From assembly GCA_965178125.1 (NCBI GenBank), contig OZ237735.1, positions 1,240,001-1,304,000 of the forward strand: a DNA stretch of 64,000 nt, read 5' to 3'. The translations under genes were made by a program, and so were the position numbers. Below the pieces are notes generated by a model. It ran no database searches and had not been told where the DNA came from. It worked only from the letters and a program-made list of their open reading frames with translations. Below, piece after piece: positions 1-64,000 of this stretch; positions within the stretch are counted from its first letter, which is position 1; each line of letters starts with the position of its first letter. The DNA is from Bilabrum cf. latius (taxonomy: Eukaryota).

Positions 1-3000
1 CTGCCTTGCTCGGTTGCGAGTCCGGCGAGCTCGACGCAGCTGCCACATAAAAGCAGTCACATGGCAGGATACGTGCGGACGACCGCCAACGGTTATCTCA
101 TCGACCAGATCGTTGTCATGCCTGAGGATCGCGCTGAAAAGCTGAGACTGCACCGCACTGAGCTGCGTGCTGGTGAACAAGAATTGATAAATGTCACCGT
201 GACCCCGGCGCTTCGCCTCTGACAATGCTGATACCTTGAGCTTGTTAATCCGGCGTGGGAGGGCCTGGAATCGCTCCACAAGCAGCTTGACTAGACTCAA
301 GTGGTTCCCTCTGACAGCCTCGATCAAGGCCGTGTAGCCTCGCGAGGTTTCGTGATCCACACCGACTCCAGCATCCAGCAGCACCACGCAAACCTTCTCG
401 TGGCCATGCATCGCTGCGAGCGTTAATGGGGTGTGCCCCTGCGATGACTCAATCAGCAGGGCATCAAGGCTGCCTAGCGTGGCGAACTGACCAACCAATG
501 AGTGATCTCCGGTGCGGCATGCGCGAAATAGCGGTGAGCTGCTGTACACGGGGTCGAACAGCAATACACCACCGGTCACAGCCCCAGGCCAACTTGCAGG
601 AGACACATCAGTATCGTCCAACCCTGACCCACGGCCCGCAAGTGAGTCTTCTGCAACCGATGCAGAGACGAGAGAGGATGAATCGCGGGCCTCGACTTGC
701 CTAACGGCGTCGGGCACCCGAGCAGCTGCACGAAGGACCTCTTCCATGATCACCTGATGCTGTGACTTCTACTGCTAGCGACCTTGCGCTGCGTCGTGGT
801 CGCTAGCCTGTCGCCGGAACCATCGGAGAAGCGGTTTTGAGTTGGAAAGCACTGCAGCCTCATAGACTGGGTCTGGTACATGCCCAAGGGCCTCCCACCG
901 TGCCTGCTGCTCCCACCTTCTGCGAGCCTGCATTTGCGCAAAAGCAGCGCCAGAGCTAGAAAGTTGTTCGGCCCATAGTTGCACCTCCCACCCTGGAATG
1001 AAGACGCTGCCACCGCGACGACGGCTAGTCCTTGCTACGGGCGTGTCTCTGCCGGCTTGCTCCAGCTGCTGCACGTCAATCACACGCTCGGCCCCCGCTT
1101 CGTCCTCGTTAAAGTCAAGGGCGTCAGGTTCGCTGGCCATTGCAGACACATCGCCAAGAAAACTAGCGTCCTGGTGGCCGGTGGCAAGTCTACGATCTCG
1201 CACGTGACCAGATTCTTGGTCCTGCCTCTCTTCGGCGCGAGCTAAGCGACGGAGCATTCTCCGCTGCCGACGCTGGAACTTGATTCGCGCATCGGAGGCA
1301 GGGACTCCCTTTGCAACTGCTTCGTCCCTGTCTTCCTGCATCGAACACTGTGGGAACTCAACGACAAGCGCAAGAGGGTGTGGGTACGCAATCCAGTCCG
1401 CCATGGGTGCCACTGTGGAAAAATACCGAGACAGACCATCCTGTGCATCTGCTCCTCCTGCGCTACCGTCCGCGGCATTAGATTTGTTCTATCTAGCAGC
1501 TTGTTTCTCGGCTCGAATGGCCTCTACCCTTGCCATCTCAGGGTCGAAAGGTACCAGCTGTAGCTCGTCGGATGTGGTTGCGTGCTGGCGACCCAAAAGC
1601 TTGCCAGATGACCGGCTGCCACGCACACCCAATTCGCGCAGAATCTCGCCCCCCCCGCGCGACACAATCCCGGTTCTGTAGTCCTCTACATCGTCTGCAA
1701 ATGCACCCGCGTCATCAAAGTCAATCGCTGCTCCCTAGTGGTTTTCACTGGGCGCACCTGCATCGTGGTCGAGTAGACCCGCGTCTGGTAAGTCGACAGC
1801 ATCTCCAAGCACACCTTCGACAGGCATTCCTGCCGCAACAAGTTCAAGTTGAAGAGCGGACAGCTTGATTTCGCCCTTTTTTATTTTTTGAACAATCTCT
1901 GGGGCATGCCCTGTGTCCTACGACCCACCCCACCGCTGGGCCAGCAGCTGCCTCTCCCTTGCTTCTTGCATGCGCAGGAGATCTCTCATGGCATGCAGCT
2001 CCATCATCGACCGCGCGCTCTCCACCATGTTGGCAAAGCTATCAGGAGGTCCGTCGGTCACCACAAAACGCCGCGAGCACGACTTGATGTGCGTCTCAAC
2101 GTCACTTGCCCAGGTCCTTGTACCACAGCCCATAGGACACTCCACCACCCGGTGAGAGCACTCATGCTCGGTATGCTCATCTACATCACGTTCAGACAGC
2201 TGTCTTCCACACTTTAGAGGGCAGTGAACCATTCGCATAGCGCACTCTGCAACTTCATGCGCATCCCGGTTGAACGGCGTGTCAAATGACATCCCGCACC
2301 CTTTTCTGCACCGAAACACATCGGCCTAGACGTCAATGTGGTCATGATGCACCACCGTCATGCCAATCCAGTCGGGCACAAAGTCTGCGGCGTCCGCCCT
2401 AGTGCCATTCTTCGCGGGCATGCCTTCGTGTTCGATGAACACCACACCATCAGGCAGAGTGTTCACAAGCAAATCTCCAAGTGCTCGAAAGTGCTCTCGT
2501 CTGCGCAGCAATTCAGCTCTATGCGGCCGTGGAATTTCTCGTTCGGATGTCAGGAGTGAGTTCGGTATCGCGCGCGGGTTGTCTGCCGGTTCAATCCCAT
2601 CGGAAGGACTGCCGCCACCTGAGTGGTCGTGAAGCGCTAGTCTGTGAGTCTTGGCTGCCTGTTGGCCAGTGCCCTCCCCTCCCTTTGCTGTAATGGGACG
2701 CAATCGAACCGGCATCGGGGAGCCTGGTCGGACGTCCTCCATTGAACCCGGACGGGAAATGGAAATACGTCTTCTAGAAGGAGCACCACGGGCCAAAGGG
2801 TGGGCAAGCAACTACCACGCTTCACTGGGCATGCCGATTCCATCCCCAGGTTGTCCGAAGGCGTTGGTCGGCCTCGCCTTCTCAAAGCGATGGAATCGGC
2901 GCTCGAGTCGCTTTTCGCGATGCTGCAACAAGTCATGCAGCAAGCCCGTCGATTGAGTGGTGCCAAGGATCTGTTGAATTCTCGGAATTTCGGCGCGCTG

Positions 3001-6000
3001 AAAGACCGGCTGCCTGGGCAAGTGGGAAACGAAAGCGTAGCTGCCATCGACGCTCCCGTCGTTCCCGTTGTAACCTCCTACCATTCTGCGTTCCACGCGA
3101 TGGCCAAGTAGCAATGCTGACGGATTTGCTACCACCTTGCCGTGAAAAGGAGCAGCAGCTGAACGTTTGGCTGCTTGCTAGTTCACATCCAGCGTAGGCA
3201 GAGGCGCGGCGCTTGAGCTTCTACTCGGCCCTGCGTCGATGAGGTCGTCTAAGTCTACATCTGCGGAGCTCTGCCACGCCAAACGCATGGCCTTAGACTG
3301 TGACTCTCTGTATGAAACAGGCATGGACATATCCTGCTTTTCGTCAGACTAGGCTCCATGAGTCGCCAGGAATCTATCAATGGTGAGGGCCTTCCCGAGC
3401 ACCCGGACGCTCTACGCTGGCAGCCGCAACCAGACGTGCCTCGAGCCCTTGCTGGCATTACCGTACCTGCCATCCGATCCGGCTTCGATGCGGGCAGGCA
3501 AATCCAAGCGAGAAACGAATTCAGAATCTACCTGACCAGCCTTGCCCGCACCTCCGACGATTGCCTCTTCGCCGTCAGTCGGGTGTGACCCAGACTAGTC
3601 AGCTAGCCGTGACACGAGTGCATCAATGGTAGACCCACTCCCTCTTGTCCAATAGTCCACAGGCACGCTCCCCAAGTCTGATGGCGTGTCTACCAATAGA
3701 GCCGCGGCGGTGGCACACGGCTCCCCGCGCACGCCACCCAGCATCCTGGGCAAGCTTCCCGGTGTTCGGCCTGGCGCTAGTCGAACCGGGGCGCACAAAC
3801 CGGACGGATCATCACACAGCTCAATAATTCCGACTCGAGCCAGAGCGCTTGCGAGCTGTTGCCTCCAAGTCTGCGGAAGCAGCCGCAGCTTGTGCATCCC
3901 AGTCCTCGGCTCGTAGCTCGAGGCCACGCAGCGTAGCGCCGTCCCGTGCACGAACACCAGCAAGCATTGTCCAATGACAGACTTTGCCATTGGGTATGCA
4001 AGCTTTCGTCCATGCTTGTCAACGTACACCTCGGAAGCCTTCTCCGATCGTTGACTGGAGGAACCAGGCAGCGCTGACGTGTCAACGAGGGCGTGGTTGT
4101 CGCTGGTATGCATCGACCCCTCCGTTGCATGCCCCACGGATCGATGGCCAGAGGCTAGTCCAACCTACTCGGTACCATCAAATCCTCGCAGCAATCTCAG
4201 CAATTCTGCTCTTCGATTTCGACGGCTAGAGTTCTCATTGGCGCTGCTTTGCGCCGACTGTCGTAGCTCTCGTAGCTCACGCCGCCATCTCTCTTCGTTC
4301 GATTCTTTCGAGTAATCTGGCTTTTTGGGAACTAGATGAGATGGAAGAGTGCCGGTGGGCAGTTCCCCGTTCTGCACCGCTAGCTGGTGCGTTTCGATGG
4401 CAAGATCGGACTTGGACTAGTTGGCCAGCAGTTTCTCCGCCCTGCTAATCACCGCGTCCGCTTTGGACCACCTACTATGCTGATCGCGCACACGACCGTG
4501 GAACGACTCCATTAGTCTCCTGAGTTTTTCCTCCCTCTATACCTCAGCGATGCGCAGCGACACGGCTCCCACCAGCCGTGTGGCTGCGAGGTGCTCGCCG
4601 AGGTTGTCTTCCGCCTGCTCGTCTCGCACGATAGCTAGGGCGGTTGGCAGATGATGCTTGACCTCTTGGTATTTTCTGGTGTCATCTACGCTACCTCGGC
4701 GCGTTCGACGACGCAACCCTCCACGAGTGGCTGAGCTGCCATGTGCAGCAGTCGTTGCAGGCCCAGCGCTACCATCCGGCTCGGTATCGACGGCCATGTG
4801 GTCCTCGGGCAGCCCTTCTGCCGGCCGCTGCCAGGAATGCTGGGTATCTGATAGCGAGTCGTGCTCGACATCAGGCTCTTTTTGTCCAACAGAGGCGTCG
4901 GCGCGAGATAACTCATCTTGCGCGATGGCGTGCAGTACCTCACCGTATGGAGTCGTTGCATCCATGCGGTGCGCGTCTGCCCGCACCCTGGCCCTGCACA
5001 TGGCAAGCAGCATGCTCTCAACGGCTTCGACATCCTCCTATGGAATAGAAGACCTCTCTCCGTCATGATACAGATAATCTTCACACGTTTTCCCGTCACG
5101 ATCCACGTGCTGCAAGGCGTTCTTGACCCAGTGCAGGGATGGAGTGCCCTGATGCATGAGGTCACGCGGGTGGTCCGACTGCTTGTGGATCAAGTCTTGG
5201 CGCTGCGCTGCAAGAGCCAAACCGTCTAGAAGGACTCGAAGGGTTTCTGTGTGGCCACGCATCGCAGCGGCAATCAGCGGGGTGCGCCCAGTCACATTTG
5301 AGGCCTGCTGCACGTCGGCTCCAAGGACCAAGAGCTCCGCAGCGCCACGCCTGTTGCCAGCTAGAGATGCCCACAGCAGCGGCGTCATGCCAGCTTTTGA
5401 TTCGTGGTTCAGCTCGGCACCTTCCCTCACTAGGCTTCGAATGAGCTGGATCTTGCCTGCGGCAGCTGCTAGCTCCAGCTGAGTTCTGCCTGTCACCGGC
5501 CCATAGACATCAAGTGCGTACGGTAGCTCCCATGGCTCTGGCAGCTGCATCCACGCCGTGTTGACCTAGGCATCAGATGACACGCTTGAAGGCGAACCTG
5601 GACCGGCAGACTCGGCGTGGCTCCCGGACTCAGACGGACTAGAATACATGTAGGCTTCCGCCTCGTGGGGAGGCGAGCCAACCTGTGATGACTGATGCTG
5701 GTTCTGTTCGGATGCAGGAACTGCACTAAGCTGTCCAAGTGCCCCAGACGGCTGCATTAGCGTAGAGCTCATTGTGGTGACGATGCTTCCGCCTGCTTCC
5801 GGTGCCTCGGGCATGTGCGACACCAATTGCTGGTGGTGGGTTGCGTTGGCTTGGACCTGTCCAGTTGCAGCGCCCGCAACTCGATGGATAGGAGATAGTG
5901 ATGGAGCAGCAGGGCTAGATCCTCGAATAGGTTGCAGGGCAGGCCTCCGTACTGCCTTGCTTATCTCAGATTTAGGTTTGGGTTCGCTCGAAGTGGCCAG

Positions 6001-6918
6001 TCCAGGGCCAGAGCCAGAGCCAGGGGTGCTTCCGGCAGTGCGGCGATCGCCGGTTCTGACTTTAAGACCAACAGCACTGCAAGCAGCTTGCAGCTCTCCC
6101 CTTCCAATGCTGCCGCACCTCTTCCACAGCCGGGTGACTGTCTGTGACAGCAACAGGTTGAGGGTGTCGCGGCTGCCTGACTGCCTAGCGGCGACATACT
6201 TGCGGGCGCGAGCGGCGAGCGCCCTCGCATCGAACCGCTCAGCGGGTGTCTAAGCCACAGCTGCTGCAGTGGCCCACGCTTTCAGAACGACGGGAGCATC
6301 CTTGAGTTTGGAAGGCGGCTGCTCGCCCAGAGCATCCAGGATATCGCCGACCCCGCTCGAGTCCTTCGAGTCCTCTCTGGAGCCGGAGGAATGCGCCACG
6401 TGCTCAAACACGTCTGACACATAGAATCGTAGAGAGTATGCAGCAGAAACTATCTTCAATGCCTCTTCGAACTGTTCTCGGCGAACTGGGATGCGCCCGC
6501 GAGCCTCCTCTAGCAAATCCGCGTCGTTCGATTCGATAGCCGCAACAATGCGAGTTCGCCACTACTCGTGCTACACGACAACCCTCAAGCTAGCAGCAGC
6601 TTCTCGAATCATTCGGAGGCGCTTTTGCTGCCTCCGAAACAAGGTAGCTATCGCAGACTCTATTGCATCGCACGCTACTTGATTGCGGGACATCCTGGCC
6701 CAGTCAAGCGCAGTACGACCCTAATCGTCGCAGTCAAACAGACAAAGTGAAAGAGGTTCTTCATCTCCTGTCGATGAAAACCAGTCAAATGGCCCGGATA
6801 GAAGCGACTCGACCACGTGCTCATCTCGGGTTCCTGCTGATGACAAGTTGCCACTCGCCGCTCTCATGAGGAGAGAGCGGCTACTTGCTACTGCTGCGAC
6901 ACCATTCATAGTACTCAT
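1..6918 (-). CDS. Very large (>2300 aa, runs off window) ankyrin-repeat protein with internal TRAF-type zinc fingers; TAG read as Gln
   Basis: Eleven track ORFs (775..1413 through 6721..7098) share one frame. I read the gaps and found 20 TAG and no TAA/TGA from ATG 6918 to base 1. Ankyrin motifs: D*GRTALDWA, AGMTPLLWAS, TGRTPLIAAA, QGHTPLTLAA, RGYTALIEAV. TRAF-like fingers CPLKCG..H..HEC..RVVECPMGCG at ~2050-2320. Confidence 0.85.
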
Positions 6919-7147
6919 TTTCAAAATCCGATCACGAAAAGAGTCTCTGCATCGGTCTACGTGGCAGCGTATGCCAGTTTTTGTTTCGCCCAACGGATTC
7001 CAGTCTTCATCTTCAAATCTGATAGGGGTCGCAACGATCGGATTGCTCGACGACGTCGACGTAAGATCACGCAAGTGTGTTTTGCTACAGAGAGGCAAGA
7101 CCCATTCAAGATTGTGTCAGACCACATGCAGTGTCGTTGAAAACCAT

Positions 7148-10100
7148 TCATGTCAGCGCCGTGAAGTCCATCAGCCCGGACATAATGCCTGCCGCAGCAG
7201 GAGCCCCGCCGCCCGCCTCGGAGGAAGAAGGGCCAGTCGCGCCCATAACCACCTGCATCGCATCCAAAGGCGCCCCACTGGCCCTAGCCTACGTGTTGCT
7301 AGCACTGCTAGAGGACGAAAGCACCCCCGGGGCGGAGGCAGTAGCACCTTCGGCCGAGGCAGAGGATGCCACGGTCTGTGGAGCAGCCGCTGCCCCCGGG
7401 CCGTCCTCGGACTCAAAGCTGAGGCCAGTATCCGACCGGAGGGCCTGACCCGCAGAAGCATCGAACGCAGTCCCACCACCGACAGGACCCAGCACGGGAT
7501 CCGCCGGGCCACCCATGCCACCCGCTGCCTGCTGCTGCGCAGCGGCACCCTCCTTAATCTGCTTGATTCGGTTGAACTCTGCCATGATAGCATCCCGACG
7601 ATCCATTGCAATTGCTGGGATGAGCGGCTGTGGGTTCTTATTTCTCAGCAGCCGCAAGCCCTCGGCCACGCATTCTTTGATCTGCTTCTGCATCTCCCGC
7701 TCCTCGGCTGTCGGCTTGGGGCGGGTCTTCCCCACGAGGTCCTTGTGGACGTCACGACGATGCCTGGCCAAGTTGGCCTTGGCCGTGAAGCGCTTGTGAC
7801 AGCTCTCCACGTCGCACATGTAGGGACGGATTCCGAAGTGGGAGGCGTAGTGGTCGTTTCTGCTGGATGGGTGCGCGTACTCTTTCCCGCAGTAGGGCCA
7901 GGGGCACTGGTACCGCTTGATTCCCTCGTGCTTGGAGCGGATGTGCTGCTTCATGTTGCTAGAATGGGCGCACCTGAAATCGCAGCCCTCGAACACGCAA
8001 TGCAGGGGCTTCTCTCCGGTGTGCACCCGGATGTGTGCGGTGAGATCGGATCGAGATCGGAACGCCTTGTCGCAGCCCTCCTGCGGGCAGTGAAACTTGC
8101 CGTCCGCCCCCTTTGGCGGCTTGTTGTTGTGGAGCTTCACCTTGATCGGGAACTTGCCTGACGATGATCTCCCAGCCTTGCGCCCTTTCGCACTAGAAGC
8201 ATCCTCTTCTTCCTGCGCCCAAGATGCGGATGATGATGCCCTGCGGGACCCTCGTCTAGCTGGGGGTGGGGGCATCGATGCTTCGGACGCGCGCGTACCA
8301 CGCGTGCTGCGTGCCGATCGTCGGGTGCCGCCATCCGCTGCTGCAGTGGCTGCAGCCGCTGCCGCTGCCGCTGCTGGCTCGCTGCCAAACGCAGGCATTG
8401 CACCGGCATCGGCATCGACGGAGCCGCTGGCATCGCCTCGTGTCCTGGCACTGGCACGAATGATGCGGCCGGAACGGCTGCGAGTGGGTGCTGCAACCGG
8501 CGCCTCACCTGCTTGCTTAGGGGAAGGCTGCTCTCCTGCAGCCTTCGCAGCTGCACGGTTGCCACGGCCCTGACTGACACGTGGGGTGGTGCTCTTGGTG
8601 GCAGCATCGCTTTCGTCGCGCTGCAGGTTGGCTGCTTGCAGCACCATGTCCAGGCTGCCTCGGGACACGTGCTGGTCACGCTGCGGGGAATCGTCCTGTG
8701 CTGCGCAGCCTTGCTTCTCAGTGCGGCTGCGTTTGCTAGAGTTTGTTGGTCCGTGACCCTCTTTAGATGATGCGAAAGCAGCGCTCGTCATGTCGATGGA
8801 AGGTGCCGGCCGCTTCTGGCCCAACTCGTGCTGCTAGTCGACGGCGGGCTCCCAGCCAGACTGCCCCCACGACCCCTCTTGCCCCCCCTCTAGCTCGTGT
8901 TTTTGTTGTCCCTGCCCCGAACCCGCCCCGGCCTCCCCAGACAAATTCGATGAGGAGCTCGCGTTGCCCAGATCTGCAAGCCCATGGGCAGCCTCCTCGT
9001 CGACACCTCGCCGTTCCCCGTGTATCGCGTATCCCATCGCGTCGCTCTGGTTGCTGTGCAGCCGCATGGAATCGTGGGCGGGCGGCATTGATCTCGCCGT
9101 GCTGGGCAGCCTCCCAAACGAGTCTCCCGCGTCTTGGCTCTGGGGCCTGACCACGTCCCGGGCCATGCCCCTTGCGGACTACTGCTGATCCGCCTACTGT
9201 GGAACCAAAGAGCTGTTGGAGGGGTTGCGAGACACTGGGTAGTGAAAAACATGGGATCCTGGAGGCAGGGGGATGGAAATCTGCTGCGCCATTTGCACTG
9301 GCTGGCCGCCGAATTGAGCCGTCTAGTAGATGGGCATGGGCAACAGCACCTGGACCGCATGGGCTGGCTGCCCTTGGATAGGAGGGTGGTAGCTGCCACT
9401 CATGTTGGACGAGTCACGGTGAATGAAGCCTTGAGTGCTTGTTGCTGCGCTTGCGCTGCTGCTGCTGCTGCTGCTGCTGCCGGTCCATGCAGCTGCGCTC
9501 GTCCCCGAGCCCCACTCGCCTGTGTCCGCACCTGCCATGCTAAATCCGCCGCCGATATCTGTCGACAGACCCTGTGATTCTAGTTCCTTTTCAATGTCTA
9601 GGTCCGAAAAGGTGCTGCTCAGTCGGAGAGGGAGGGAGCCCGGTGGCCCGCCGTCGTCTCCATCGCCCTCCTCCGATGTGGCCCCCACGGCAGCAAGACT
9701 GGCGAGGCCGCTCACCGCCGCAGAGCTCGAGGCGTCGGAGCCGGCTGGGGCGTGCGCGGCGGACCCCCAAGACGCCTCCTGCGAATTGTTCCCGTTGCCA
9801 TACTGGCTCCCTCGCGGTAGTGTGTCGATGCTAGCTTGGCGATCCACCCCAGGCTCCACCGCCTGCCCCGATGCTGTCGCCGTGCTCGATCCGGTGCTGG
9901 CCTGGCCCGCACCTGTGTGCTAGGTACCAGCCGCCTCCACAGCACCTCTGGTACCAATATGACCATAGCTTGCTGAAGACGACACCCTCGGGTTTACTGC
10001 ACCCATTCTAACGAATGTTTTTGGCTGACTCTCGCCCGATTCGATCTGTTGTGGTGCGCTGCTGATCGATGAGCCTCCCAGCACATTGCTTGCTGATCCA

Positions 10101-10627
10101 ATGGAACTGAAAGGGTCTGGTAACTCCCTTCCTTCCTCAATGTGCCCTACCTGTATCGCAGAGAGAAGCTGGCTTGCATCGTCTGAGCTCGAGTACCAGT
10201 CGGCTGCTGCTTGCACCAATCTGTCCCGCACGGCCTCCAAGTTTGGGCCTGGTTCTTCCAGAGCTGGCATAATCTGCCGCGTACAGCCAAAAATTGCCTT
10301 CTTTGGCAGTCTTGACTCCCCAAAATGAAGTTTGGAAGCCCGATCAACACAGGTTTGTCGCAATACCTCCAGACCTCCTGTTGAAGCACTCATAGGAAAC
10401 AGCACCCGGCACATGTCGGTGTATAGCCGCAATGCCAAAAGGATTTCTGGACCAAGATGCTCGCTGATTTCAAGGGATACGCTTTCAGCTTGAGACTCAG
10501 CGGCGCCGAAGCCACGCTTTTCAGCGACGACCAACATTCCCTCCCTAAATACTTGGGGCGCTTCCTGCGGCCACTGCTCCTAGTTTTGTTTGACACCAGC
10601 AACGATATCCTAGATGGATGTTGGCAT
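7148..10627 (-). CDS. C2H2 zinc-finger transcription factor (4 fingers), long low-complexity N-terminus; TAG read as Gln
   Basis: ORFs 9920..10537, 9323..9859, 8834..9166 and 7289..8824 are co-framed and joined only by TAG; first TGA at 7148-7150. Fingers CPQEGC..HIRVH-TGEKP-..CVFEGC..H, CPWPYC..H, CDVESC..H at ~7740-8100. Start uncertain (ATG 10537, 10627 or 10840). Confidence 0.8.
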
Positions 10628-10986
10628 GTGCAGGTCACGGGACTTTGAACGGGAGATTGCATAAACGGCGTCATCACCATTTGCGCTGCGTTTCCGGATA
10701 TTGCTCTCACAGCAATTAGTCGAGTGAGGATGAAGCTAATGCTAAGTTTGGGTACCCATGCATTTTGAGATGGAGGCCAGACGCAGGAAACGGTGCCGAT
10801 GGGATGAGCAGCACTCTCGCAGCAAGCAACCACCACTCATGCATGGGTCTCTCTCTACCATAGGTTGACCAGCATCGGGACGGGTCGGCTCTTAGCTGCT
10901 CGCTGCCTAGACCGAGCTATAGTATCATGATATATATGCTGGGTTAATTGCAACAGAACTTCGCCGGGAACGGTTGGCCAAGAGCG

Positions 10987-15617: not shown

Positions 15618-15648
15618 GAGACCAACGTTGCGTTTCAGAACTAGATAT

Positions 15649-18090: not shown

Positions 18091-18224
18091 CAGATAGCGT
18101 CCAACTAGTCCCCCAATAGAGAAAAGGGGTTTCATTGCAATTTGCATCGGACGAACGTTCTCTGCTTGGCGACTCGTGGTTCGCTAGCTCGGTTGGACTC
18201 GCCGCGGCAATTCTAGCCTGAGAG

Positions 18225-23865: not shown

Positions 23866-24078
23866 AGTAGAACCTGCTGCTGAGGGCACGCAAGACGCCG
23901 GCGGGCTTCGCCGCTCGAAAGGTGCGCCAATCGTCGTGGAGGGAGCTTGCGCTTTAAAATTGCTTGCACGAGTACCGACGGGATTTCTCTCGTATAAGTT
24001 AGTAGTTTTCGGTCACGGGGATCAATCGCTCCGGGTCCAAGGTTTGGATGTCTTTGCTTGCACATTCCGGTGGCCCAA

Positions 24079-40262: not shown

Positions 40263-40483
40263 TACGTTTATTGCATTCATGTTATACTCGTGTGCCCAGT
40301 TGACTGCCAGCGAATGAGGCGTTTGCAAAATGTGTTGCGACCAGCCTTCTAGCAGCACGCCGGCTTCCTGTTTTTGCGAGGCGCCGCGAGCGTTCCGGCC
40401 GACAGGTTCCGCACGACGCAGCGCATCGACCCAGTCGCTTCACGTGACCGGCTCGGAGGCGCGCAGTCCGCGATATCTGTACA

Positions 40484-48280: not shown

Positions 48281-48331
48281 GCTAAGCGATGTAGAACACG
48301 CGATTGGCTTTGGCGCACCAAACCGGAACTA

Positions 48332-51300: not shown

Positions 51301-52513
51301 CTTCCTGCTCGGCGCGGGACCGCCCCGCCTGGGCCGATCTCTCCCTCTCCTCTGCCGCCTCCAGGGCCTTCCTGGCCTCGTTGGCCTCGTTGGCAGCCCC
51401 CTTGAACCTGTCCTCTGCAGCCTCGCGCTGCTGCTTGAGCACCTCGATGGCCCGCCGCGCGTCTGCCAAGGTGTCCAAAGTCGTCTGCTGCGCCTGCCTC
51501 GCCTGCTGCAGCTGCTCCCGGCTTTGCTTCAGAGCGTCCTCCGTGCGTTCGAGCTGCTGCGCCAGCGCCGCAACCTCTGCCCGTAGCAGCTCTGCCTCCC
51601 GCTCCACCAGCCCCAGGCGCTCCACGGCCTCGTCCTCGAGAGCGCCACGGGTGATCGAGGCGTGGCCGAAGCCAGGAGGAGGGGCCTATCCCGACCTGCC
51701 CCCGGTGGTGCGGCCCGCTGCCGTTGCGAGTCCCCCAAAGGAGGACCCGCCCCCGCCCAGGCCCATCCCAGAGGAGTCCACCCCCGACGGCCCCTTGGAC
51801 GTCCCGTGCCCCGGGCCCCCAGCGGAGCCGTCTGCGATCAGCTTGGTGCGCGCAGCAGCCGCTGCCCCCATCGGGTCCTGGGTGGCCGCTTCGAGGTCTT
51901 CTGCGATCGCCCGCTGCAGGTCAGACCTGAGCGCCGCGTTTTCCTCCGTGAGCGCGACGGCCTTGTCCTGCGCTGCCCGGAGGGTTTCGCCCATGGCGCC
52001 GTTCGCCTCTTCCAGCTCGCCGATCCTGCCATCGTAAGCAACTAGCAAAGGAACCATCACGTCGGGGTCCACGACCCACGGAGGCAGATCTTCTGAGCCC
52101 TCCCACGAAGTAGCGGCGCCGTCTTCTTTGCTCTCTCTCGCAGCGCCGCTCTGCTCCAAGCCGGCCTGCCGCGACAGCGCTCTGTTGAGTTCCGTTTGAG
52201 AACGCGCAAGCATCTGTCGAAGATGCTCATTCTAAATGGACAGTTGTCTGCGAATCAAATGACGAATGACCCTACGTTGGTGCGGATATGACATGGCAAC
52301 ACAGCGCAGTGAATCGGTGTCTCTGAGTGCAGGAGCTTACCGGAGCTACTGTGCCAGTTCGCCCTCCTGGGACACATCCAGAGGATTGCCAGACTGCAAT
52401 CAGAAGACAAATAATGATGCAAGCAGGCAGTGGCGTGCCCTGAAACGGACAAACGTTACGGGCAACCGATCCAAGCTCCTGCTTACCATACCGCTCGCTG
52501 CTGTAGCTGCCAT
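48332..52513 (-). CDS. Long coiled-coil centriolar protein, SCLT1-like; TAG read as Gln
   Basis: Five co-framed ORFs plus two small 5' exons (introns 52394-52486 and 52248-52340, both GTAAGC..GCAG), 8 TAG, TGA 48332. LRQLSI*NEHL and PLLVAYDGRIGEL..EENAALRSDL resemble remembered SCLT1/CEP89 N-terminal motifs. Confidence 0.7.
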
Positions 52514-52891: not shown

Positions 52892-53148
52892 AGCGGAGCA
52901 CAGCAACTGAAATACACGCAATCTCGGCCCGCAGGGCCGAGCACAAACAGACAAACAAACAATAATAAAAGCGAAGGGAATACACACGACATGTTGACCC
53001 CCATACCTTACCTTTGTACGGCTGGGGTCTGCTGTATTTACGAAGGAGTGGGGCGCGCAGGGTTTGCAGCTAGTGCCTGCGTAAAGTAACGTGCCATTCC
53101 CTCTAGAATGCAATATAGCCTGCAGCGATAAGCAAATACGCCTGCGTA

Positions 53149-54819
53149 ATGGATGGAGAGGACAGCGGCTACGAAGCAGACGGAGGTAACGTAAAATATG
53201 GAACAAATAGAGAGGGAAAACGAGGTTCCAATCCATTAGATATTGGAATTAGGCGCTCAAATGCGTATGTATCTGAGGCTTCGTCCGGGTACGCTGCCGG
53301 TGGGTCTGCTAACAGCTCCGCTGGTCGAAAGAGCCCTTTGCACAGTGGAATTGACTCTATATAGAACAGCGATTACGATAGTGGGATTGCTGGTGACCTG
53401 TCTGGTTTTGAAGACGTCGCGAGGCTGCACCGCCGATCGAAACCTTCACACAGAATATAGAGCCGTTCTCGGCACAAAAGAACTCAGTCTCCCGGGAAAC
53501 ATAGTCATCGTGGTCAATCAAAGCGGTCTGTTCCATCGCAGTCGGGGGCGGCCCTTGAACTTGCGCTTCCGGCTGGAAGCCGGCATGGTGAAGCCGGCCT
53601 GAAGCGAGCAGCGGCATCATCTGCTTCGTCGGGGCCCCAGCTCCCGCCCTCGCAGCAGGGATCCACAGGTGCTAGTGCCCGAGATTCTAGCTCTGGTCCC
53701 AGCACAGCGGCAAGGCGCGCTCCTTGGGGCGGTGTAACCCGCTACTCTCCCCTGGCCGGTCCTCGCCCGCCCTCTGCAGTGCTCCAGGCAGCGCTGGCGT
53801 CGGGCAGATCAGTGGACTCTGTTCTAAGGGGCACCAAGGCGCAGCAGCAGCAGCAATAGTACCAACAGAAGCTCAGGCCATCAGAGGGATCGATGCCGAT
53901 GACTGGCATGCCCCCACCAACCTACACGGGCACCTGGGTGCCTGGCGAATCGGCCCCGTTGCAGGAGATCGGCACCGGCACGGTTGGCAAGAAAAGGAAG
54001 CGCAGCGCCGACGGCAAGCCAGGCAAGTCAGAGACGATCGTGTACCCGGCGTCAATCGCGATGGGTGGCCCGGGCGGCCAGCCGCAGCCACCTACGGCAA
54101 TGCAGCCGTAGCAGCAGCAACTGTAGCCGCTGCCCAGCGGCAGCGGTGCTCCAATGTGGGCAGATCAACGCAGTGCACAAGGGGTTGCAGCGGGCACAGG
54201 TGCGGGCGCAATGCCTCAGCTAGCTAGTGCTGCACGGCTTGCGAGGCCACGTGCTCGCCCGAGCGCCAGTGTGAGTCCAGGCGCCAGTGCGGGCCTGCGT
54301 TCAATGGCGGGCGGGGTGCCACAGTTCGGCGGTCCGTTCGCGCACAGGGTCGTGTCCTGGGGCGCAGATGGCGGGGCAGGTCGGCCCACGGGACCTGCAC
54401 CGTCGATCAAAGGGCAGAAGGAGCGCGACAGGGAGGTCGGCAGGAGGCGAGGACGACAACGCTCGGGAGCAGCAGCAGGCAGCGGCAGCGGCGGCGGCAG
54501 CGGGGGAAGCACCTCGGGTGATCTGGCGGACGGCGAGTCTGGGCTGATCAAGGGCTCGATGCCCATCGTGGACGATGGCGCAGAGGGCGACGGAGAGGCC
54601 ATGAGCGACAACTCGGAGCCGTATTCAAGTTTCCGGAGGGAGTTCGTGCCGGACCGGTCCGACACGGCAGAGGGGTACTTGCCCAGCGGCTCTGACGGGG
54701 CCACAGACGAGGACACGCCCAGGGGCGGGGTCAGCAGAGGCGGGCATGCTAGTAGTGCCAGGTAGAAGGCAGCGTCGGGTGCCCGTGTGAAGAAGCAGGG
54801 GTAGGGGGAAGGCACGTGA
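53149..54819 (+). CDS. Hypothetical low-complexity (Ser/Gly/Gln-rich) nuclear protein; TAG read as Gln
   Basis: ORFs 53149..53364, 53893..54111 and 54154..54765 are co-framed, 7 TAG, TGA at 54817-54819. NLS-like KKRKR; poly-Gln tracts contain TAG. Confidence 0.7.
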
Positions 54820-54975: not shown

Positions 54976-57900
54976 TCAGATCCCAGGCCCCCCTCCTCCC
55001 GCCACGCTCGACCTGAGCTCAGGGGGCACGTACACGCCTGCATCATCCAGCAGGGTGAGCATGCCAACCGCACTCTGCTGCAGGTTTGCCAGCCTCTCTG
55101 TGATGGTGAGCAGCTGTCGATCGTAGGCCTGCTACAGCCGGGCCGCCTCCTGTTTAGCCTCCGCTGCTTCTTGCTGCGCGGAGACCAGCAGCTCGACGTG
55201 ACGCTGCAGGACGGCTTTCGACTCGCCCAGCTGCGTGCGGAGCACCTCTATCTCGGTGTGACGAGTGCATCCGCTCCGAGACGAGACGCTGCCGGAGCGG
55301 CTTCGAGTGGGGCTGCCCACTCCGCTGGGCTCGGATCCGTTTCGCAGCGCTCGTCCCGAAGGCTGGCCAGATACGGGGTCTGCCTTTACTTCCTCCTCAA
55401 TCGCAAGATCTGCCTCGCTACCCAGGCCAGTGACATGCTCGCCTGCATCTCCGGGGGAGGATGCGCGGGAGCTTGGTGCCGCCGGGCTGTTGTCCACCGT
55501 GATCGGCCTCAGGAGGCCCAGGGCCCTCGCTGCTTCCCTCACCTCCGCAGGCAGAGGGGCGATCGCACGTAGACCCGCTGCCGTCCCGCCTCCCGGTGCC
55601 GTGCCTCCCAAAAATACAGTGCCGACTGTTGCTTCAGTTGCTGCGGCCGCTGCGGCAGCCTCGAGTAGGCTAGACTTGGACTCTTTCGTGCTGCGAGCTG
55701 CATCTCCGTTGAGCACAGCGCCGACAGCAGCGGCATGGACGGTTTGCTCTCGACTCAGAAGCAGCTTGAAGGCACGCCGTGACAGAAAGGCTCCTTCCTG
55801 ACCTCGTGGTCTCTGCATAGTAGCGCGAGGCCGCCGCTGCTTGGACTGCTTCGCCATCGCCTGCTGGCTGAGCATTGGCGAGATTGATGTTACCCCGATG
55901 CTGGTCACCTAGCCGCAGGCATGCTTCGGCTAGCCCTGTTCTCTGGCTTGTTCAAGCTGCTACAGGCGGCCCACAGCTTCGTCCCGCTCGGCCCTGATAC
56001 TCCGCATCTCTAGTCTAGCCTAGCGCAGCCCATCTCTGAGCCCTGGCACCTCGCCAAGTGCCCGACGCGCGGCACCGAGATCCACCCTGCTTCTCTTTCC
56101 AGCCCTACGAGCTGCAACACGGTTATAGGCCACGGCTGCTGGGTGCATAGACTGCGTTGCTCCGGCAATGAATCGCGCACCCGCTGCTTCTGCGCGCAGT
56201 GCCCCGGTCTGCAACGCCAAATCGATTGCGTTGCTTGCCATTCTAGGCTACCTCTGGAAATCTCTGGCATGCGTACTGCTGGATACCACGACAAGGCCTG
56301 GTTCAGCCACGTGATCTGTTTCGACCCTTCGTGGCAGCGCACACGACAGGCGCGTGTCAAGGGCTCTGCCTGACTGCTGCTCCCACTGCACGTTGGATGC
56401 ACCGCCCGCCGGGGCAGATGCGCTATTGACTTCGCCCCGACCAAGAAATAGCCTCCTTTCTACTTTTCCAATGGAAGCTGGAGTGGCTATCGCAGGATCA
56501 GAACCGTCAGTCGCACTACCCCTTGCCGAAGGCACCTTAATTGGTGGGGTGAGCTACGTATTCGCCGCGAAAGAGGCTACTTCATCAGCGTGAGTGGCAT
56601 CAGATCCTTTGTTGTCAGGCTGACCGTTTCTTGGCACTTCCAACTGCTCCTCGTCACTATTATGCCCATAGCTGACTCGTTCACTATCAGGTGCACCAGC
56701 CAGCAGTAAAGCTAATTGCTCATCAGACCCAGTGGCAAGCGAGAGGCTTGCTGCCTCCTATTCTGTTGGCATGCGAGATTGCGGCGGGGTGCCTGCCCAT
56801 CGGCCCACTGTGGTGCTCAGCACATCTACTGAGCGTTTCAATTGCTGTCCAAGCTTCCATTCAGCTTGCTACTGCTCTAGGCCGGCATTCACCGCCTCGG
56901 TAGTCGTGTCGCCCCTAATTGCTGCGGCCCCGGGATTCAATTGGCAGGCTACCATTGAAGCAAGCCTCTGCGTGGCGGGGTGATCCAGCTGCAGGAGACT
57001 CGCCGCAGCTCCTGCCTTGGCGGCTAGCTGCAGAGCTACGGCGGCACTCTTGGCTACAGTGGCACAGGCAGCGACTGCACTCTGCAATTGGTCGCTAGCT
57101 CCAGCTTGACGTTCATCGCTGTCGCCCGCGTCCCGGCCGCCTGCAGCAGAGGCTCCTGATCGACGGCTCAGGGAAGATCGGCGACCCCTCCACGTGCCAA
57201 CGTCGGCCGAATTCATGTCTGTGCCTCGTGAAAGCGATTCCAGCAGCTTGGTGGCGTGCTCCGCAGCTCGAAGGACTGCATGCGCCCTGGCGCCATCTTC
57301 AGCACCGAGCGCCGTGGCGAGCTCCGGCATAGCGGCCGCGTCCGAGGAACGCCGGGCAGGTTTGGGTGTGTGTCCCAGCTCGCTTCGTTCGTCTGCTTGC
57401 AGCCCTTGCGCGGATCTCCACTGCCTCAAAGCTGAGCGCCACACGGCTGCATGGGACGAGATGGCAGATTGCACGCTGCCAGCGCACCGCTGCATTTTCT
57501 CCGCGACTATCGCTGCAGCTTGCTTCGATCCCGTAGGACTCATGGAGCCTGCCATCCAAAGCATTGCGGCCTCCAACCCGTTTGATGTGCGTTCTGTGCT
57601 CGGTGTGACATCACCCCGTGCGACGCCAGGTCGCAGCGCAGCCTAGTTGCCGCTGCCAGAGGCAACCTCACCCCCACAACGCCTTGGCACAAGCTCTGCG
57701 CAGCCTAGGAGACCAGCCTCTCGTACGCTGCTCAGCAGCTGCGACAAAGAGGTGTAGAGAGATTCTAGCTCGTCGGCCGTGTCCAGCCAGGCGTCCGCTC
57801 CAGCCCGGAGCGCCGAGAGACAGGCTCCCGTGCCGAGTGGGGCGGCGGCAGCGTCGCTGGAACCACCGCCATGCCCGTCCGCCGATATCCCCCCTACTCG

Positions 57901-59019
57901 ACCGTACCTGTCTGGAATGTGATCGTTAGACCCAGCACCCCTTGCCACAGGCGCCTCAGGCGTTTTCCCCGGTCCGCCATCGATGGCAAGCTGCCGCAGC
58001 GACGACGACTCGCCGTCGACCGCGATGCGCGCGAGCAGACCGGCCATACCGCGCCCTTGCTCAGCGACGGCAGAAGTAAGAGCCCGCACCGCCTCTCTGC
58101 AGCCCTTGATATCTCGCACGAAAGCGCCCGACCTCGAGAAAGCCCCAGAAACAACGCGGCTCACGTTGCCGTCTGCTCCGTGCGGGCCGCGGCTGCATGC
58201 TGCTGATACAGCCAGATCTAGAGCTGCAAATCGAGAGTCTGTCGTAAAGGTTCCTCTTTTGAGATTCGAATGCGTCGCTCTGCTCGCTGCGAGAAGTGCC
58301 AGAGCTCTGCGCCGTGCACGCTGCTGCCGGCGCAATGCCAACACGAGCCTGTCTCGCGACTCCGCCCCGGATTCTAGCTGTGCTTGCATGCTGACCATAT
58401 CTCGCTTGGCTAGTGCCCTCACACCTTCTAGCATGTCACCTCTGGCAGCTGCAAGCTCTTGTGCATCGTGTGTCTGCTGTTGCAGCTGTCGAATCTGCGC
58501 TCTGAGGGCCGACAACTCTCCTTCTCGTACATCTCGGAGGAGCTTGAGCTCTTTGTCTGCGCGAGCCGCTCGCTGCTTTTCCTTTTCGATGGCTGCAAGT
58601 GTGGAGTGAAGCTTTCGTTTTTCGCTTGTATCGGTGGTGTCCGTCCACAAACCAAACACAGAGCCAGTTGCTGGCGAGTCTGCAGCCGGGTCAGTGCCGA
58701 CCGTTTGCAGAAGGGTTTGAATCTGACTTGTGGCATCATTCAGATCTGTTTGGAGCTAATCTGCCCTGCTGGACTCTCTGCTAGCCTCAGCTTCGGAGTT
58801 GAGCACGGCAAGCTGAGATTCTCGCAGGCGTTTGCTGAGGTCCTCCTTCCGCTTGTGTTCATGCGCAAGGGCCTCCCGGATAGATTCGACCTAGTTCTTC
58901 TTGCGAGAATAAGCCAACCACAGCTTTCTATACAACCTCATCACGGCGTCCTGTGGCTATGCGGAGTGTCGCAATACATGAGAATCAGGTCGTGGTATGT
59001 GCTCTTCACTCGCATCCAT
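54976..59019 (-). CDS. PPP1R21: PPP1R21 (KLRAQ/FERRY scaffold)-like coiled-coil protein; TAG read as Gln
   Basis: Single frame with 13 TAG, ends TGA TAA. N-terminal YRKLWLAYSRKKN*VESIREAL resembles YQKLAQEYSKLRAQNQVLKKGV; C-terminal QAYDRQLLTITERL resembles RSYEDQLSMMSDHL (both from memory). Confidence 0.65.
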
Positions 59020-59612
59020 CACGTAAAAATTGCCTCGTGGAAAACCCAAATCAGATCATAATGTGAACCCGATCACTCGTATGCGTCTGGAATAACACAG
59101 AACTTCACAAGATGCGGGCAGGCCACTGGCTTTCGGGACCGTTCAGGAGAGTCTGGTGACGAGTGCTGCGACAAAAGCTGCGAGACTCCGGGAAGGTGCT
59201 CAGTGTGATGGCTTGCAGCGTGAGTATAGGGCCGCATGTCTTCTATCCGAGTAGGAATAGGGCACGGGGTGATTCAGACAGGCGAATTGGCGACCGACTG
59301 GCGGCGCCGAGACTGATTGCGCGTGCAGGTAGAGAGTGTTCAAAGCTGGTGTGCCGCAGATTCAAAACATTGCCGTTATGACCCAATCCAACCTTTGGAC
59401 AGCCAAGGTCTGTGAGCCAGACCGCCTATTCCGCAGACCCAGCCAGCAGCACCTGCCAACTCCACCCAAAGCAGCCCCGGTGCACATGCTGTCACCAGAA
59501 TGGATATCACGCGTCGCATCTATTCTGGTGACAGCATCTATGCGCTTATCCCCCCAGCTTTAACACAATACGAGGCAGCGCCGTGCAGGGCTCCTGCCCG
59601 CTGAATCTGCGC

Positions 59613-60371: not shown

Positions 60372-61859
60372 TCAACCTGAAACAAGCTTCACAAGCTGGC
60401 CCGACGCTGCCCGAAACAACCTATCCCTCACAGCCTCCGCGTCCTCGTGCTCGCTCACACCAGGCACCACAAGCGGATCAGCAATCAGCACGGCGGCGCC
60501 TGGCTGGCTTTCTGTCCAACGCAGCGTGCCAAACACATGCTATCTGGCCACTCTGACGTCTCCATCCGGTGCCAAGTCCGTGTATGCCGCCGCAAGCGGC
60601 CGCAAAGAGCGCAGCCAGCAGCCGGCGTCGATCACCACGCAGTCCTCAATCAATGGGAGCTTTGTGGCTGAATCAATTCCCTCTACCTGTGCAAGAACGG
60701 GAGCTGTTGCTCCGGACGACTCTCGGCTGCTCCCACTCGCACCAGCCTCAGACCCATGGCCAGCCCCAGCCCCTGCTGCATCACCACTAGCATCGCCGGC
60801 CCGACCTGCACGTCCAGCCGCACCCGTGAACGGAACACTATCGCCGCTAGATGATGCTTCTTCTCCGCGTGCAACTACCATGTATGTCGGTTTGTCGGGG
60901 GCATAGTGTGTCAGCAGCTGCCCGGGGGCCTCCAGTCCGGCTGCTCCGTCACCCGCCGGAGCACTTGCTCCGTGCTCGCTCCCAGCACTCTTGCTCGACC
61001 CCGACGCTCCAGCTGGATCAGCGTGTGATTTGGCTGCTTTTGCGACCAGCTCGATCGGCACGGCGCCAAACCCCGCGTCATCCAAGGCGGTCCGGATGGC
61101 CTTAATGGACACACCACCTCGACGGAACACAACGATGCGGATAGAGCTGCCCGCGCCTCCCGCAACTTCCGGTGTGTCTGGTACACAATCGGAGCTGGCT
61201 GCTTCGATTTCAATCTTCATCACTGTGGACTCGATCCCGACGTCGCAAACGGCGGTGGGAGCTGCTGCGTCATGTCCCTCAAAAAGTGACCCATCTCCGT
61301 CTACGATGCCAATAGAACAGTGGCCTAGGTCTTCCATTACATGAGCGGCCAGAGTTGGGCTGACGTGGCCAAACCTGTTTGCACTGGGTGCCGCAATGGG
61401 CAGCCCGGCAGCCTCAATCAGCGCACGGGCCACGGGATGCTTCGGAACGCGAATTCCAACGAAGCCAGTGGACGCAGTGACCTTAAGGGGGATGCAGTCT
61501 GCAGCTTTTCCAACGATTGTTAGAGGGCCTGGCCAAAACTTGTCTGCTAGCGAAGAAAATAGCTCCGTCCCCTTTGGAGGAAGCTGAAGCAACTCCAGGG
61601 CCGACTTTTTGGAGGTAACATGCACAATAAGCGGGTCAGAGAGCGGTCGTCCCTTATGCGTAAAGATGCTCTGGACCGCGTCCTCATTTAGAGCGTTTGC
61701 TCCGAGCCCATACACAGTTTCTGTTGGGAACGCAACACATGTGCCGCCTTGCAGCAACTTTGCTGCCTTGGAGATTCCCTCAGCGTCTGGTCTCAACGCT
61801 TGCGCTAAGCGCTTTACTGCTGAATGCACCATTGTTTTTACTGCCTGCACAGCAGCCAT
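60372..61859 (-). CDS. SUA5: Threonylcarbamoyl-AMP synthase Sua5 (YrdC + SUA5 domain); TAG read as Gln
   Basis: Motifs VAFPTETVYGLGANA, KGRPLSDPLIVH, FWPGPLT, PIAAPSAN, GIESTV, APGQLLTHYAP. The conserved tail VAR*HVFGTLRW..RDRLFRAASG lies beyond TAG 60540; ends TGA 60372. Confidence 0.93.
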
Positions 61860-61989
61860 GTTATCTCAGGAAATGCAACGACGTTCTCTGCTGGTGTTTG
61901 ACGATGGCACTTCCGGTTTTGCCAGCTGGTCCGGCGGCCGGATGATGTTTATGAATTGGGCTATTCCAAAGCACGTAGCATCTGCTTCG

Positions 61990-64000
61990 ATGCAAGATGA
62001 CCTAAGTCATCAAGGAGGCTTTATTGAACGGGTTCTATCGGACGTCCATGTTGCCCAGCCCCTGCTAGAGGCTGAGGCTTCCAATGAGACGTCTCAATCT
62101 GGCCCCTCGTCAGGTGCAGAGGTGCCAGCAGTTGAGAAACCGCATCCGTTCGAAGTTGCAGTTGGACATCTTAGCCAAGCACTTGCAAATACTGGGTCCG
62201 CGTTGCAGATGCTGGACGGCAGCCTGTCTTCAGTAGATCGCAAGCTACGAATCCAAAGTCGAAACCAGGCCCCGCCTCTTTTCGTTCCACTCCCATGCGT
62301 ATCAGATGGCGCAAGCGATGTCACTTCTGTGTAGCTTGAGATGAGCTTGCGCTCTCGACAGAAGGCGCTGCAAGAAGCAGCTGTGGCCCTGGCACACACC
62401 CACGCCGGAGCGGTTGCGTCCATAGCTCGTGGCCGCCGCCGACATGCGGCTGTAAGCGCTGCAATAAATGTAATCGCGAAAAGCTTCTGTCAATATGCTA
62501 GCAATGCTGGCGATCAAGCGGCTCTCAGCTGCCTGTAGGTCCCGTCGGTTAGCCGCCCGTCGTCCGGTTCGATGGACCGAGCGGTCGAAGCCAGGGCAGC
62601 GGCTCTCGGGCTGTGGCTGCTGCGGGCGGATGCACGTCTGCAAGCAGCTCTATGTGCGGCAAGTGTGAGCTAGTTTAGCTTGCTCGCGTTCGAAGGCACC
62701 GAAAGCGGCGAGGAGAGGCCGAGGAAGAAGCACCGATAGGGCGAGCACGGAGCAGGTGCGCGCGATGCTACGTCCCCAGGCAGCGACAGCACGAGCCTTG
62801 GTGATGTCGGCGCATCAAAGGAAGACAATGCCATGCAAGAGTGGGAAGAGCATCTGCAGTGGCCCCCTCCCATAGCATCGTTTGGCATAGGCGGCAGCAA
62901 GAGCGCGGTGTCAGCGACACCATCCCGGGGGGGGGCAGTGGAACCGTCCCAGGTGGGTGCAAACACCGCGGTGGTGTGTGCTGGATTCCTGCAGGATTAG
63001 TCTGCATCGAGGTCAGGCACGCACCCGTAGCTGGTACACCCTGCTGCCTCCACTGTGTTCGTGTTGCCGGATGCAGATGCTAGCAGCGAAGGCCCTGGCC
63101 GTGGGGCGGGGGCGGGGGCGGAGGCGAAGGCGGAGGCGAAGGCTGCTGGTAGTGAAGCAGGCGCTGCCCTGAGAAGCAGCAGCAGCTCAAGTTCCAGCTC
63201 CGGCTCGGCTTCCGTTGCTGCCGCCGCTGATTCAGCGCAAGTCGTGGGGTTCGGACCACTGGGTTCTCTGGGCTGCTCGCAGGCGCCTCTCGTGTTTAGC
63301 GCCACAGTGCTCGTGCGGGATGATGCTGCTGCCTCCAACGGGTGGCTCACGGGAGGAGGGCCCGGGGTTCCAAGTCGTGCTGCGCTGCAGGAAGCCATGC
63401 GAGTGAGACGACCTGCGGGGTGGCGAGTGGCAGCACGGGCAGAGTGGCGCGCGGGCAATTGCTTCGGGACTGAAGCGCCCGGTACAACTGCAGCCTCTGT
63501 GTCTGCGCAGGCAGGCAACATCATGTGTTCCCTGAATGCGCTATGGGGCTGGGTCCGCGTGCTGGCCTATGTCTCAACTCTGGAAGCTGAGTAGAACAAG
63601 GACAGTCCAGGGGGCATCGAGTAGGGCCAGGCCGCGATGGATGGCGTTGATGGATCCGAGGGTGGTGCATCACTTCGAGCTGCCGCTGCACTGGTCCGTG
63701 TTTCTGGCTCGGCGCCTCTAGGGGTTGAGCACGCATTGGCTGTGCTTGGGAGCGCAGCCTCTGCGCCTGGCGAGACAGGACGCGGCACCGCCGCCCTCGA
63801 GCGAGCATTGCTAGTCGATGCATTGAGTGGATGCCTGGACGACGTAGCAGTGACACGGCTGCGGGCTGCCGCAGCTGCCGCGTCCAAGGTGGGCAAAGGG
63901 GCTAGCTCGACACCAGACGACCTGGGCATCAGGGCCATTGCGGCCGTGCGGCGACTGTGCGAATGGAGATTCTTGACCATCCCGGCAGTCACGGACGGGT
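61990..64000 (+). CDS. Hypothetical protein running off the window (weak resemblance to Mediator Med17 N-terminus); TAG read as Gln
   Basis: One frame from ATG 61990 to the window end with about 8 TAG and no TAA/TGA. PFEVAVGHLSQAL and SLRSRQKALQEAAVAL loosely recall Med17; the product call is speculative. Confidence 0.55.

Follow-up and report, generated by a model that had tools for sequence, protein, structure and literature searches.

The DNA analysed here is a 64,000-nucleotide stretch of contig OZ237735.1 (positions 1,240,001 to 1,304,000), referred to as the window throughout, and all coordinates below are counted from its first letter. It has a GC content of 61% and carries about 20 closely packed genes on both strands, the reading frames of which are repeatedly crossed by the triplet TAG. 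An earlier note on this DNA, made from the letters alone, had claimed that UAG is a sense codon of the nuclear code in this organism and most likely specifies glutamine; the meaning of TAG, and of the other two stop codons, is the subject of this analysis. The genes and open reading frames (ORFs) of the window are as follows.

1..7116, minus strand: ankyrin / TRAF-zinc-finger gene; an ORF of 2372 codons when TAA and TGA are the stops; Ank_2, Ank and zf-TRAF domains; 20 in-frame TAG; open at the window edge
7151..10891, minus strand: C2H2 zinc-finger gene (ORF and Pfam); 10 in-frame TAG; ends at TGA
12505..14664, plus strand: P-loop gene of no curated family (ORF and Pfam); 5 in-frame TAG past the first ATG
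15652..18261, minus strand: CCCH/RING (makorin-like) gene (ORF and Pfam); 9 in-frame TAG; ends at TAA
20998..23862, plus strand: Na/Ca-exchanger-family gene (ORF and Pfam); 2 in-frame TAG past the first ATG
23998..25782, plus strand: D-2-hydroxyglutarate dehydrogenase (D2HGDH) gene; FAD_binding_4 and FAD-oxidase_C in one frame; TAG at 24196, 24871 and 25357; TGA stop
25900..31095, minus strand: LRR and dual-specificity-phosphatase gene (Pfam and transcripts); 11 in-frame TAG; an intron (31082-31204) upstream
31523..33668, plus strand: PKA-like protein kinase gene; Pkinase on two ORF pieces; GT..AG introns at about 32787-32943 and 33052-33204; kinase exons free of TAG
33906..34951, minus strand: RSPH9 (radial spoke head 9) gene; exons 34951-34731, 34636-34518 and 34420-33906; TAG at 34835, 34742 and 34296
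35063..36817, plus strand: low-complexity protein gene (ORF); 8 in-frame TAG, four of them in a (GACTAG)4 repeat at 35900-35923
36840..40262, plus strand: ACAP-like BAR-PH-ArfGAP-ANK gene (Pfam); TAG at 37275, 37428, 37524, 37617, 37779 and 39954; ends at TAA (40260-40262)
40448..43825, plus strand: NADPH-oxidase-family (NOX) gene; Ferric_reduct, FAD_binding_8 and NAD_binding_6, with matches to NOX5 and NOX2 chains in the PDB; intron at about 41850-42026; TAG at 42842
45356..48331, minus strand: bacterial/mitochondrial-type aspartyl-tRNA synthetase (AspRS) gene with long insertions; 6 in-frame TAG including 46232
48335..52336, minus strand: long coiled-coil gene (earlier label 'SCLT1', a name left unconfirmed); 7 in-frame TAG; TGA stop directly followed by TAG
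52969..54816, plus strand: low-complexity Q-rich protein gene (ORF); 7 in-frame TAG past the first ATG, one of them in a CAG/CAA run at 53857
54979..59055, minus strand: long coiled-coil gene (earlier label 'PPP1R21', a name left unconfirmed); 13 in-frame TAG
60375..61865, minus strand: Sua5/YrdC threonylcarbamoyl-AMP synthase gene (Pfam); TAG at 60540 inside Sua5_C
61588..63999, plus strand: ORF of no family; 8 in-frame TAG; open at the window edge

The identities of the genes that bear most on the argument were well supported. The D2HGDH product matched human D2HGDH, annotated in the PDB as mitochondrial, with an E-value of 3.5e-111, and RSPH9 matched RSPH9 chains in the PDB (E 1e-33 and 1e-4), its three-exon reading being in agreement with transcript joints. 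AspRS was recognised through tRNA-synt_2 (E 1.2e-92 over residues 273-851) and through human mitochondrial AspRS (E 9.7e-90).

When all three conventional stop codons were applied to the window, the longest ORF comprised 798 codons and only two reached 600 codons or more, whilst 16 ORFs of at least 600 codons were present once TAG was no longer counted as a stop, the longest being 2372, 1732, 1359, 1334 and 1247 codons. In 100 block shuffles that preserved local composition the longest ORF was 882 codons and at most two reached 600, and freeing TAA or TGA instead of TAG yielded no such set of non-overlapping long frames. Across 21 gene pieces from 19 genes (17,729 codons) a total of 125 in-frame TAG codons were counted, in keeping with the earlier note's figures of over 100 such codons and some 18 genes, along with no TAA and no TGA. 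The two off-frames of the same pieces contained 154 and 143 TAG, 46 and 47 TAA, and 250 and 329 TGA, such that the density of TAG was 0.71% in frame versus 0.81-0.87% off-frame. TAG is not avoided in frame, and TAA and TGA are excluded. Counted as a glutamine codon, TAG would account for approximately 15% of the total (125 TAG, 539 CAG and 180 CAA).

Coding character also continued across these codons. The GC content at the three codon positions, measured over 40 codons either side, was 0.66/0.53/0.63 before and 0.67/0.55/0.64 after 110 internal TAGs, versus 0.69/0.53/0.69 before and a flattened 0.50/0.54/0.53 after 15 terminal TGA or TAA codons. Several Pfam domains extend over a TAG in a single frame, namely FAD-oxidase_C (24871 and 25357), tRNA-synt_2 (46232), Sua5_C (60540) and FAD_binding_8 (42842), and all of the sites singled out in the earlier note (these five and RSPH9 34296) were located within or between Pfam- or PDB-matched domains in one frame. 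Its remark that TAG sits within runs of CAG and CAA was likewise correct, as exemplified by cag cag cag cag caa tag tac caa cag at 53842-53868.

An alternative is that the TAGs are never translated, having been edited or spliced out of the messages or belonging to pseudogenes or assembly errors. This was addressed over 23998-43900 with public contigs of one DNA run (X1) and three transcript runs (X5 and X6 from one study, X7 from another), the latter three being taken as RNA from their spliced joints alone, as no run is recorded as RNA. Six GT..AG joints were common to X5, X6 and X7 and absent from X1: the kinase gene and RSPH9 have two each, NOX has one, and the sixth lies upstream of the LRR-phosphatase gene. 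The corresponding introns (31082-31204, 32787-32943, 33052-33204, 34421-34517, 34637-34730 and 41850-42026) are 94-177 nt in length and all begin with GTGAG. None of the four runs had a letter differing from the window across the compared region; for instance, a transcript contig of X5 covers D2HGDH from 24116 to 25805 with no other letter, and NOX TAG 42842 is unchanged in transcript contigs of X5, X6 and X7. At least 14 of the 32 in-frame TAGs of this region lie in transcript pieces, among the pieces listed, and no listed TAG is removed by any of the six introns. The earlier note's expectation that TAG would be retained, unedited and unspliced, in mRNA was therefore borne out in contigs of three runs from two studies. 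Since spliced transcript contigs keep the TAGs unchanged, editing and splicing are ruled out as far as contigs show, bearing in mind that rare edited forms could escape in contigs as opposed to raw reads. Over this region the window agrees letter for letter with the transcript contigs of two studies and the DNA contigs of a third, the only gaps are the six introns, and coding periodicity continues over the TAGs; we regard untranslated TAGs as scarcely conceivable. The ORF structure, the continuity of domains and the unedited, spliced transcript contigs show that UAG is a sense codon.

The intron density of the region is low, at six per approximately 20 kb compared. The NOX intron (41850-42026) is 177 nt, or 59 codons, in frame and stop-free, hence the unspliced ORF reads through it and it was revealed by the transcript joints alone. 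Transcript and DNA contigs were both interrupted near a repeat at 35870-35923 (loose ends 35861-35901), where a (CACGAG)n tract encoding His-Glu leads into (GACTAG)4, that is, four Asp-TAG units, in the low-complexity gene beginning at 35063.

In NCBI translation table 15 UAG encodes glutamine, whilst UAA and UGA are stops. Of 16 complete gene models examined, 14 end at TGA and two, makorin-like and ACAP, at TAA. The TAA of ACAP lies within 2-9 residues of the ends of its homologues and is followed by AT-rich sequence. An alternative code in which UAG and UAA both specify glutamine (UAR, as in code 6), TAA being merely rare due to high GC, would account for the overall scarcity of TAA in a window of 61% GC, and UAR=Gln is the commoner variant (PMC5304391 and PMC11687900, both in excerpt). 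Approximately 42 in-frame TAAs would nonetheless be expected were TAA a glutamine codon (CAA/CAG of 0.33 × 125 TAG), and there are none; the ORFs gain little length when TGA alone is taken as a stop; and the two gene ends at TAA, particularly that of ACAP at the C-terminus of its homologues with its AT-rich flank, also argue against a UAR code, which we consider highly improbable. UAA and UGA still terminate, and the code is of the table 15 type. In this respect the earlier note, which had described a UAG-only, table-15-like change, was correct, given the absence of TAA and TGA in frame, the gene ends and the loss of periodicity after stops.

The identity of the residue was approached primarily through close relatives of the host. 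Relatives at 98, 91, 74, 72, 69 and 56% protein identity were present in public environmental assemblies. An exhaustive search with the ACAP-like protein retrieved two short proteins, P0189 and P0151, both encoded on a single public contig of 24,187 nt. The 97 aa of P0189 form an ungapped alignment with residues 164-260 of the ACAP-like protein, with six ordinary differences; Q is present at window TAGs 37428, 37524 and 37617, and the ORF of P0189 terminates precisely at window CAG 37638, a reciprocal site, whilst P0151 (110 aa, nine differences) ends exactly before window TAG 37275. Similarly, P0277, a protein of 177 aa encoded on a contig of 2,244 nt, differs from the last RSPH9 exon at three ordinary positions and has Q at TAG 34296. 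Relatives of 91-98% identity hence have Q at all four covered TAG sites. Over the P0189 stretch, TAG-to-Q accounts for three of the nine differences, a share that is consistent with synonymous C/T turnover and would not be expected of radical replacements. The 91% relative appears to share the code. At RSPH9 34296, Q is also found in the 69% relative (P0122). These close relatives are, at the level of protein alignments, the decisive line pointing to glutamine. No internal paralogues pairing TAG against CAG were found in the window. A metagenome scan with P0001 gave 80 loci, all of at most 37% identity and without the contig of the 72% relative, and these loci were not used.

A second line of evidence came from sequence context, modelled over the six residues flanking a site with the proteins of the window as training set. 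The log-likelihood of this model at TAG was highest for Q (3.4), followed by L (0.9), E (-0.7), A (-3.2) and S (-22.6). Enrichment of Q within three residues of TAG was 1.96-fold, versus 1.98-fold beside Q itself.

More distant homologues were also considered. The TAG columns of D2HGDH, across 120 homologues, had the compositions S 45, Q 11 and K 10; K 35, Q 19, R 16 and A 16; and E 46, D 41 and A 15 without Q. Those of RSPH9, NOX and AspRS contained, in PDB chains, Q, L and A; D, A and R; T and S; H, K and E; and T and K. Among variable columns, the fraction of Q was 0.091 at TAG versus 0.043 in non-Q columns (p 0.009), and did not fall short of the fraction in true Q columns (p 0.11). The same test disfavoured Glu (p 0.012) and Lys (p 0.044), the fractions of which fell below those of variable E and K columns, and Ser, Leu, Asp, Thr and Arg were rejected (p <= 0.0004). 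Of the alignments cited in the earlier note, those of D2HGDH and RSPH9 could be recovered, in that Q occupies 24871 in human D2HGDH and 34296 in the RSPH9 chains of three vertebrate entries, whilst those of PPP1R21 and SCLT1 were unconfirmed. Neither name corresponded to a Pfam family at E-values up to 1, a search that gave generic coiled-coil noise only for both ORFs, and the 1347-aa 'PPP1R21-like' protein had no homologue at E <= 1e-5 in a search for homologous proteins; both names were hence dropped.

A number of observations weigh against a simple assignment of glutamine. As P0189 and P0277 are short ORF fragments of standard-code gene calling, their Q codons are presumed to be CAG or CAA. 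RSPH9 34296 is L in the 74% relative and A in three more distant ones, two window TAGs of D2HGDH correspond to R and E in the 72% relative, and column 427 of D2HGDH contains no Q among the 120 homologues. Ala came first (5.5) in a Codetta-like score over ten TAG columns, each with at least five homologues, ahead of Gln (2.2) and Glu (1.3). When the score was calibrated on random sets of ten columns with a known residue, 275-299 of 300 draws were called correctly (275 of 300 for true-Q sets), and the positions of TAG are hence no random draw from the sites of any residue, glutamine included. Nine of the ten TAG columns are variable, and in the fraction test they are equally compatible with Ala. 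The earlier note had expected columns dominated by Q in a Codetta-type check; Q proved compatible and Leu was rejected, but Q was not dominant and Ala ranked first. Taken by themselves, the distant columns point weakly to either Q or Ala. Finally, TAG is overrepresented among the 25 codons that close a gene (7 of 400, versus 0.66% in gene bodies; 2.6-fold, binomial p 0.018), as in the TAGs at 36806, 54798 and 45389.

The score for Ala, the R and E of the 72% relative and the variability of the columns, as if the residue at TAG were tolerated rather than specified, could be accommodated if UAG specified another residue (Ala, Glu or Lys) or were decoded ambiguously by near-cognate tRNAs. Set against this are the four of four Q residues in close relatives and the reciprocal CAG site, the poor context scores of Ala and Glu relative to Gln, and the low fractions of Glu and Lys. 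Ala is implausible because no Ala codon is one base from TAG and a third of the differences between close relatives would be radical replacements. We therefore consider a residue other than glutamine quite improbable; glutamine is the only candidate consistent with the close relatives, the flanking context and the distant columns alike.

The excess of TAG near 3' ends raises a different possibility, namely that UAG has two meanings, glutamine inside genes and stop near the true 3' end. Context-dependent stop/sense codons have been described for some ciliates and Blastocrithidia. In six of the 16 complete genes a TAG precedes the TGA by 4-22 codons, and the last TAG of AspRS lies at the position where bacterial AspRS chains end. 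However, human mitochondrial AspRS aligns past that TAG, all 16 complete models end at TGA or TAA, the excess is small, and C-terminal tails are the kind of unconstrained position that TAG prefers. The excess may reflect residual UAG termination, or merely this preference for unconstrained positions, and we regard a dual meaning as unlikely.

Taken together, UAG is very probably read as glutamine, with UAA and UGA as stops, in nuclear genes of a GC-rich, intron-poor, flagellum-bearing eukaryote. The earlier interpretation was thus supported by the close relatives, by the reciprocal CAG site and by the flanking context. UAG would then be an ordinary glutamine codon for the ribosome, with TAG swapping freely with CAG between close relatives. 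By analogy with other organisms in which UAG is glutamine (PMC5304391, in excerpt), decoding would be performed by a tRNA-Gln with anticodon CUA, one base from tRNA-Gln(CUG), that reads UAG and not UAA, and eRF1 would be without efficient UAG recognition. No tRNA genes or RNA families were detected in the 64-kb window with ARAGORN and Rfam.

Ciliate macronuclear genomes are AT-rich and have very short introns. The window differs from these in its GC content of 61% and in its GT..AG introns, which measure 94-177 nt, and it lies on DNA contigs of at least 33.8 kb; a ciliate host is unlikely on grounds of GC content and intron size. In its code the window resembles Protocruzia tuzeti and two phyllopharyngean ciliate lineages, in which UAG encodes glutamine and UAA is not reassigned (PMC11687900, in excerpt). 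Of the known systems Iotanema spirale (Fornicata) also provides a likeness, as UAG is frequently used for glutamine, and UAA and UGA are stops, in both (PMC5304391 and PMC11687900, in excerpt). Iotanema is, however, an anaerobic metamonad (PMC5304391, in excerpt), whilst the window has a D2HGDH with a mitochondrial-annotated PDB match, a mitochondrial-type AspRS and 61% GC; because of this D2HGDH match and the type of AspRS a fornicate host is unlikely, and the origin of the code is likely independent of that in Iotanema.

Amoeboaphelidium protococcarum (Aphelida) provides another non-ciliate instance of a stop-to-Gln change, in which TAG and TAA are both reported to be glutamine (PMC6299283 and PMC5304391, both in excerpt). 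In the window TAA is a stop, and the GC content of 61%, compared with 40.5% in the Amoeboaphelidium genome (PMC10608142, Table 1), ruled out Amoeboaphelidium as the host. UAR=Gln has been reported for Amoeboaphelidium, hexamitids and ulvophytes. Non-ciliate changes of UAG alone, with UAA retained as a stop, are represented by Rhizaria sp. exLh (UAG=Leu) and Scotinosphaera (UAG=Ser) (PMC11687900 and PMC5304391, in excerpt). Neither of these codes was tenable for the window, since in the column test p was 0.0 of 5000 draws for each, the context scores were 0.9 and -22.6 versus 3.4 for Gln, and the relatives show Q. The earlier note was right to call nuclear UAG-only reassignment rare and to cite Iotanema, although its list was too short, given that Protocruzia, the phyllopharyngeans, the rhizarian with Leu and Scotinosphaera with Ser also belong to it (PMC11687900, in excerpt). 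UAG=Gln with UAA as a stop is already known, and the window adds a further case rather than a new type of code. A literature search, with subscription papers and supplements outside its scope, found no published GC-rich flagellate with UAG=Gln.

D2HGDH is extremely divergent in this organism and its 72% relative: in a tree of 121 rows the two were placed outside the 119 others, their stem branch measuring 1.47 changes per site. The best named homologue of the ACAP-like protein was from Pinguiococcus (a stramenopile), at 34% identity, which is too weak for placement. Small shares of the stretch's words occurred in runs labelled algae or protist metagenome, and these were not used to infer a habitat. 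We tentatively propose, at somewhat less than even probability, an independent UAG-to-Gln change in a fast-evolving, GC-rich clade of aerobic flagellates, with a possible residual function of UAG as a stop near 3' ends.

Several other features of the window were noted. The 72% D2HGDH relative (P0281) has SGMTG where the window and two homologues have GGNTG. AspRS, at about 975 aa versus 580-617 aa in PDB homologues, contains long low-complexity insertions within its catalytic domain, and similar Ala/Gly/Ser-rich insertions are present in Sua5, D2HGDH and the ACAP-like protein. The coiled-coil gene at 48335..52336 ends at a TGA (48332-48334, minus strand) adjoined by an in-frame TAG (48326-48334 overall), and as the AspRS ORF is in the same frame the two resemble one ORF split by a single TGA. 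A 153-bp tandem duplication in perfect register (11630-11935; copies 11630-11782 and 11783-11935, 99.3% identical) doubles a 51-residue peptide within an ORF without a family match, and a 52-nt imperfect palindrome (59486-59537, 84.6% self-complementary) is located in the intergenic region between a coiled-coil gene and the next ORF.

Nuclear code changes are few outside the ciliates, and those that uncouple UAG from UAA are fewer still; different meanings of the two codons have been described in one rhizarian, Iotanema, Scotinosphaera and some ciliates (PMC5304391 and PMC11687900, in excerpt). A further, probably independent case in an aerobic flagellate of high GC content would test whether the coupling of UAG and UAA is a hard constraint, and would also test the role of composition bias in stop-codon capture, with TGA ending 14 of 16 genes and TAG left free. 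Standard gene callers shatter the genes of this organism, and the proteins of its relatives have entered public sets only in pieces of 97-177 aa, hence annotation and phylogenomics of the clade need code 15. The genome and transcript runs of 2025 suggest that others are already studying the organism. If the proposed independent change is real, it would provide a high-GC, non-ciliate system, apparently with both genome and transcriptome data, in which the uncoupling of UAG from UAA can be studied.

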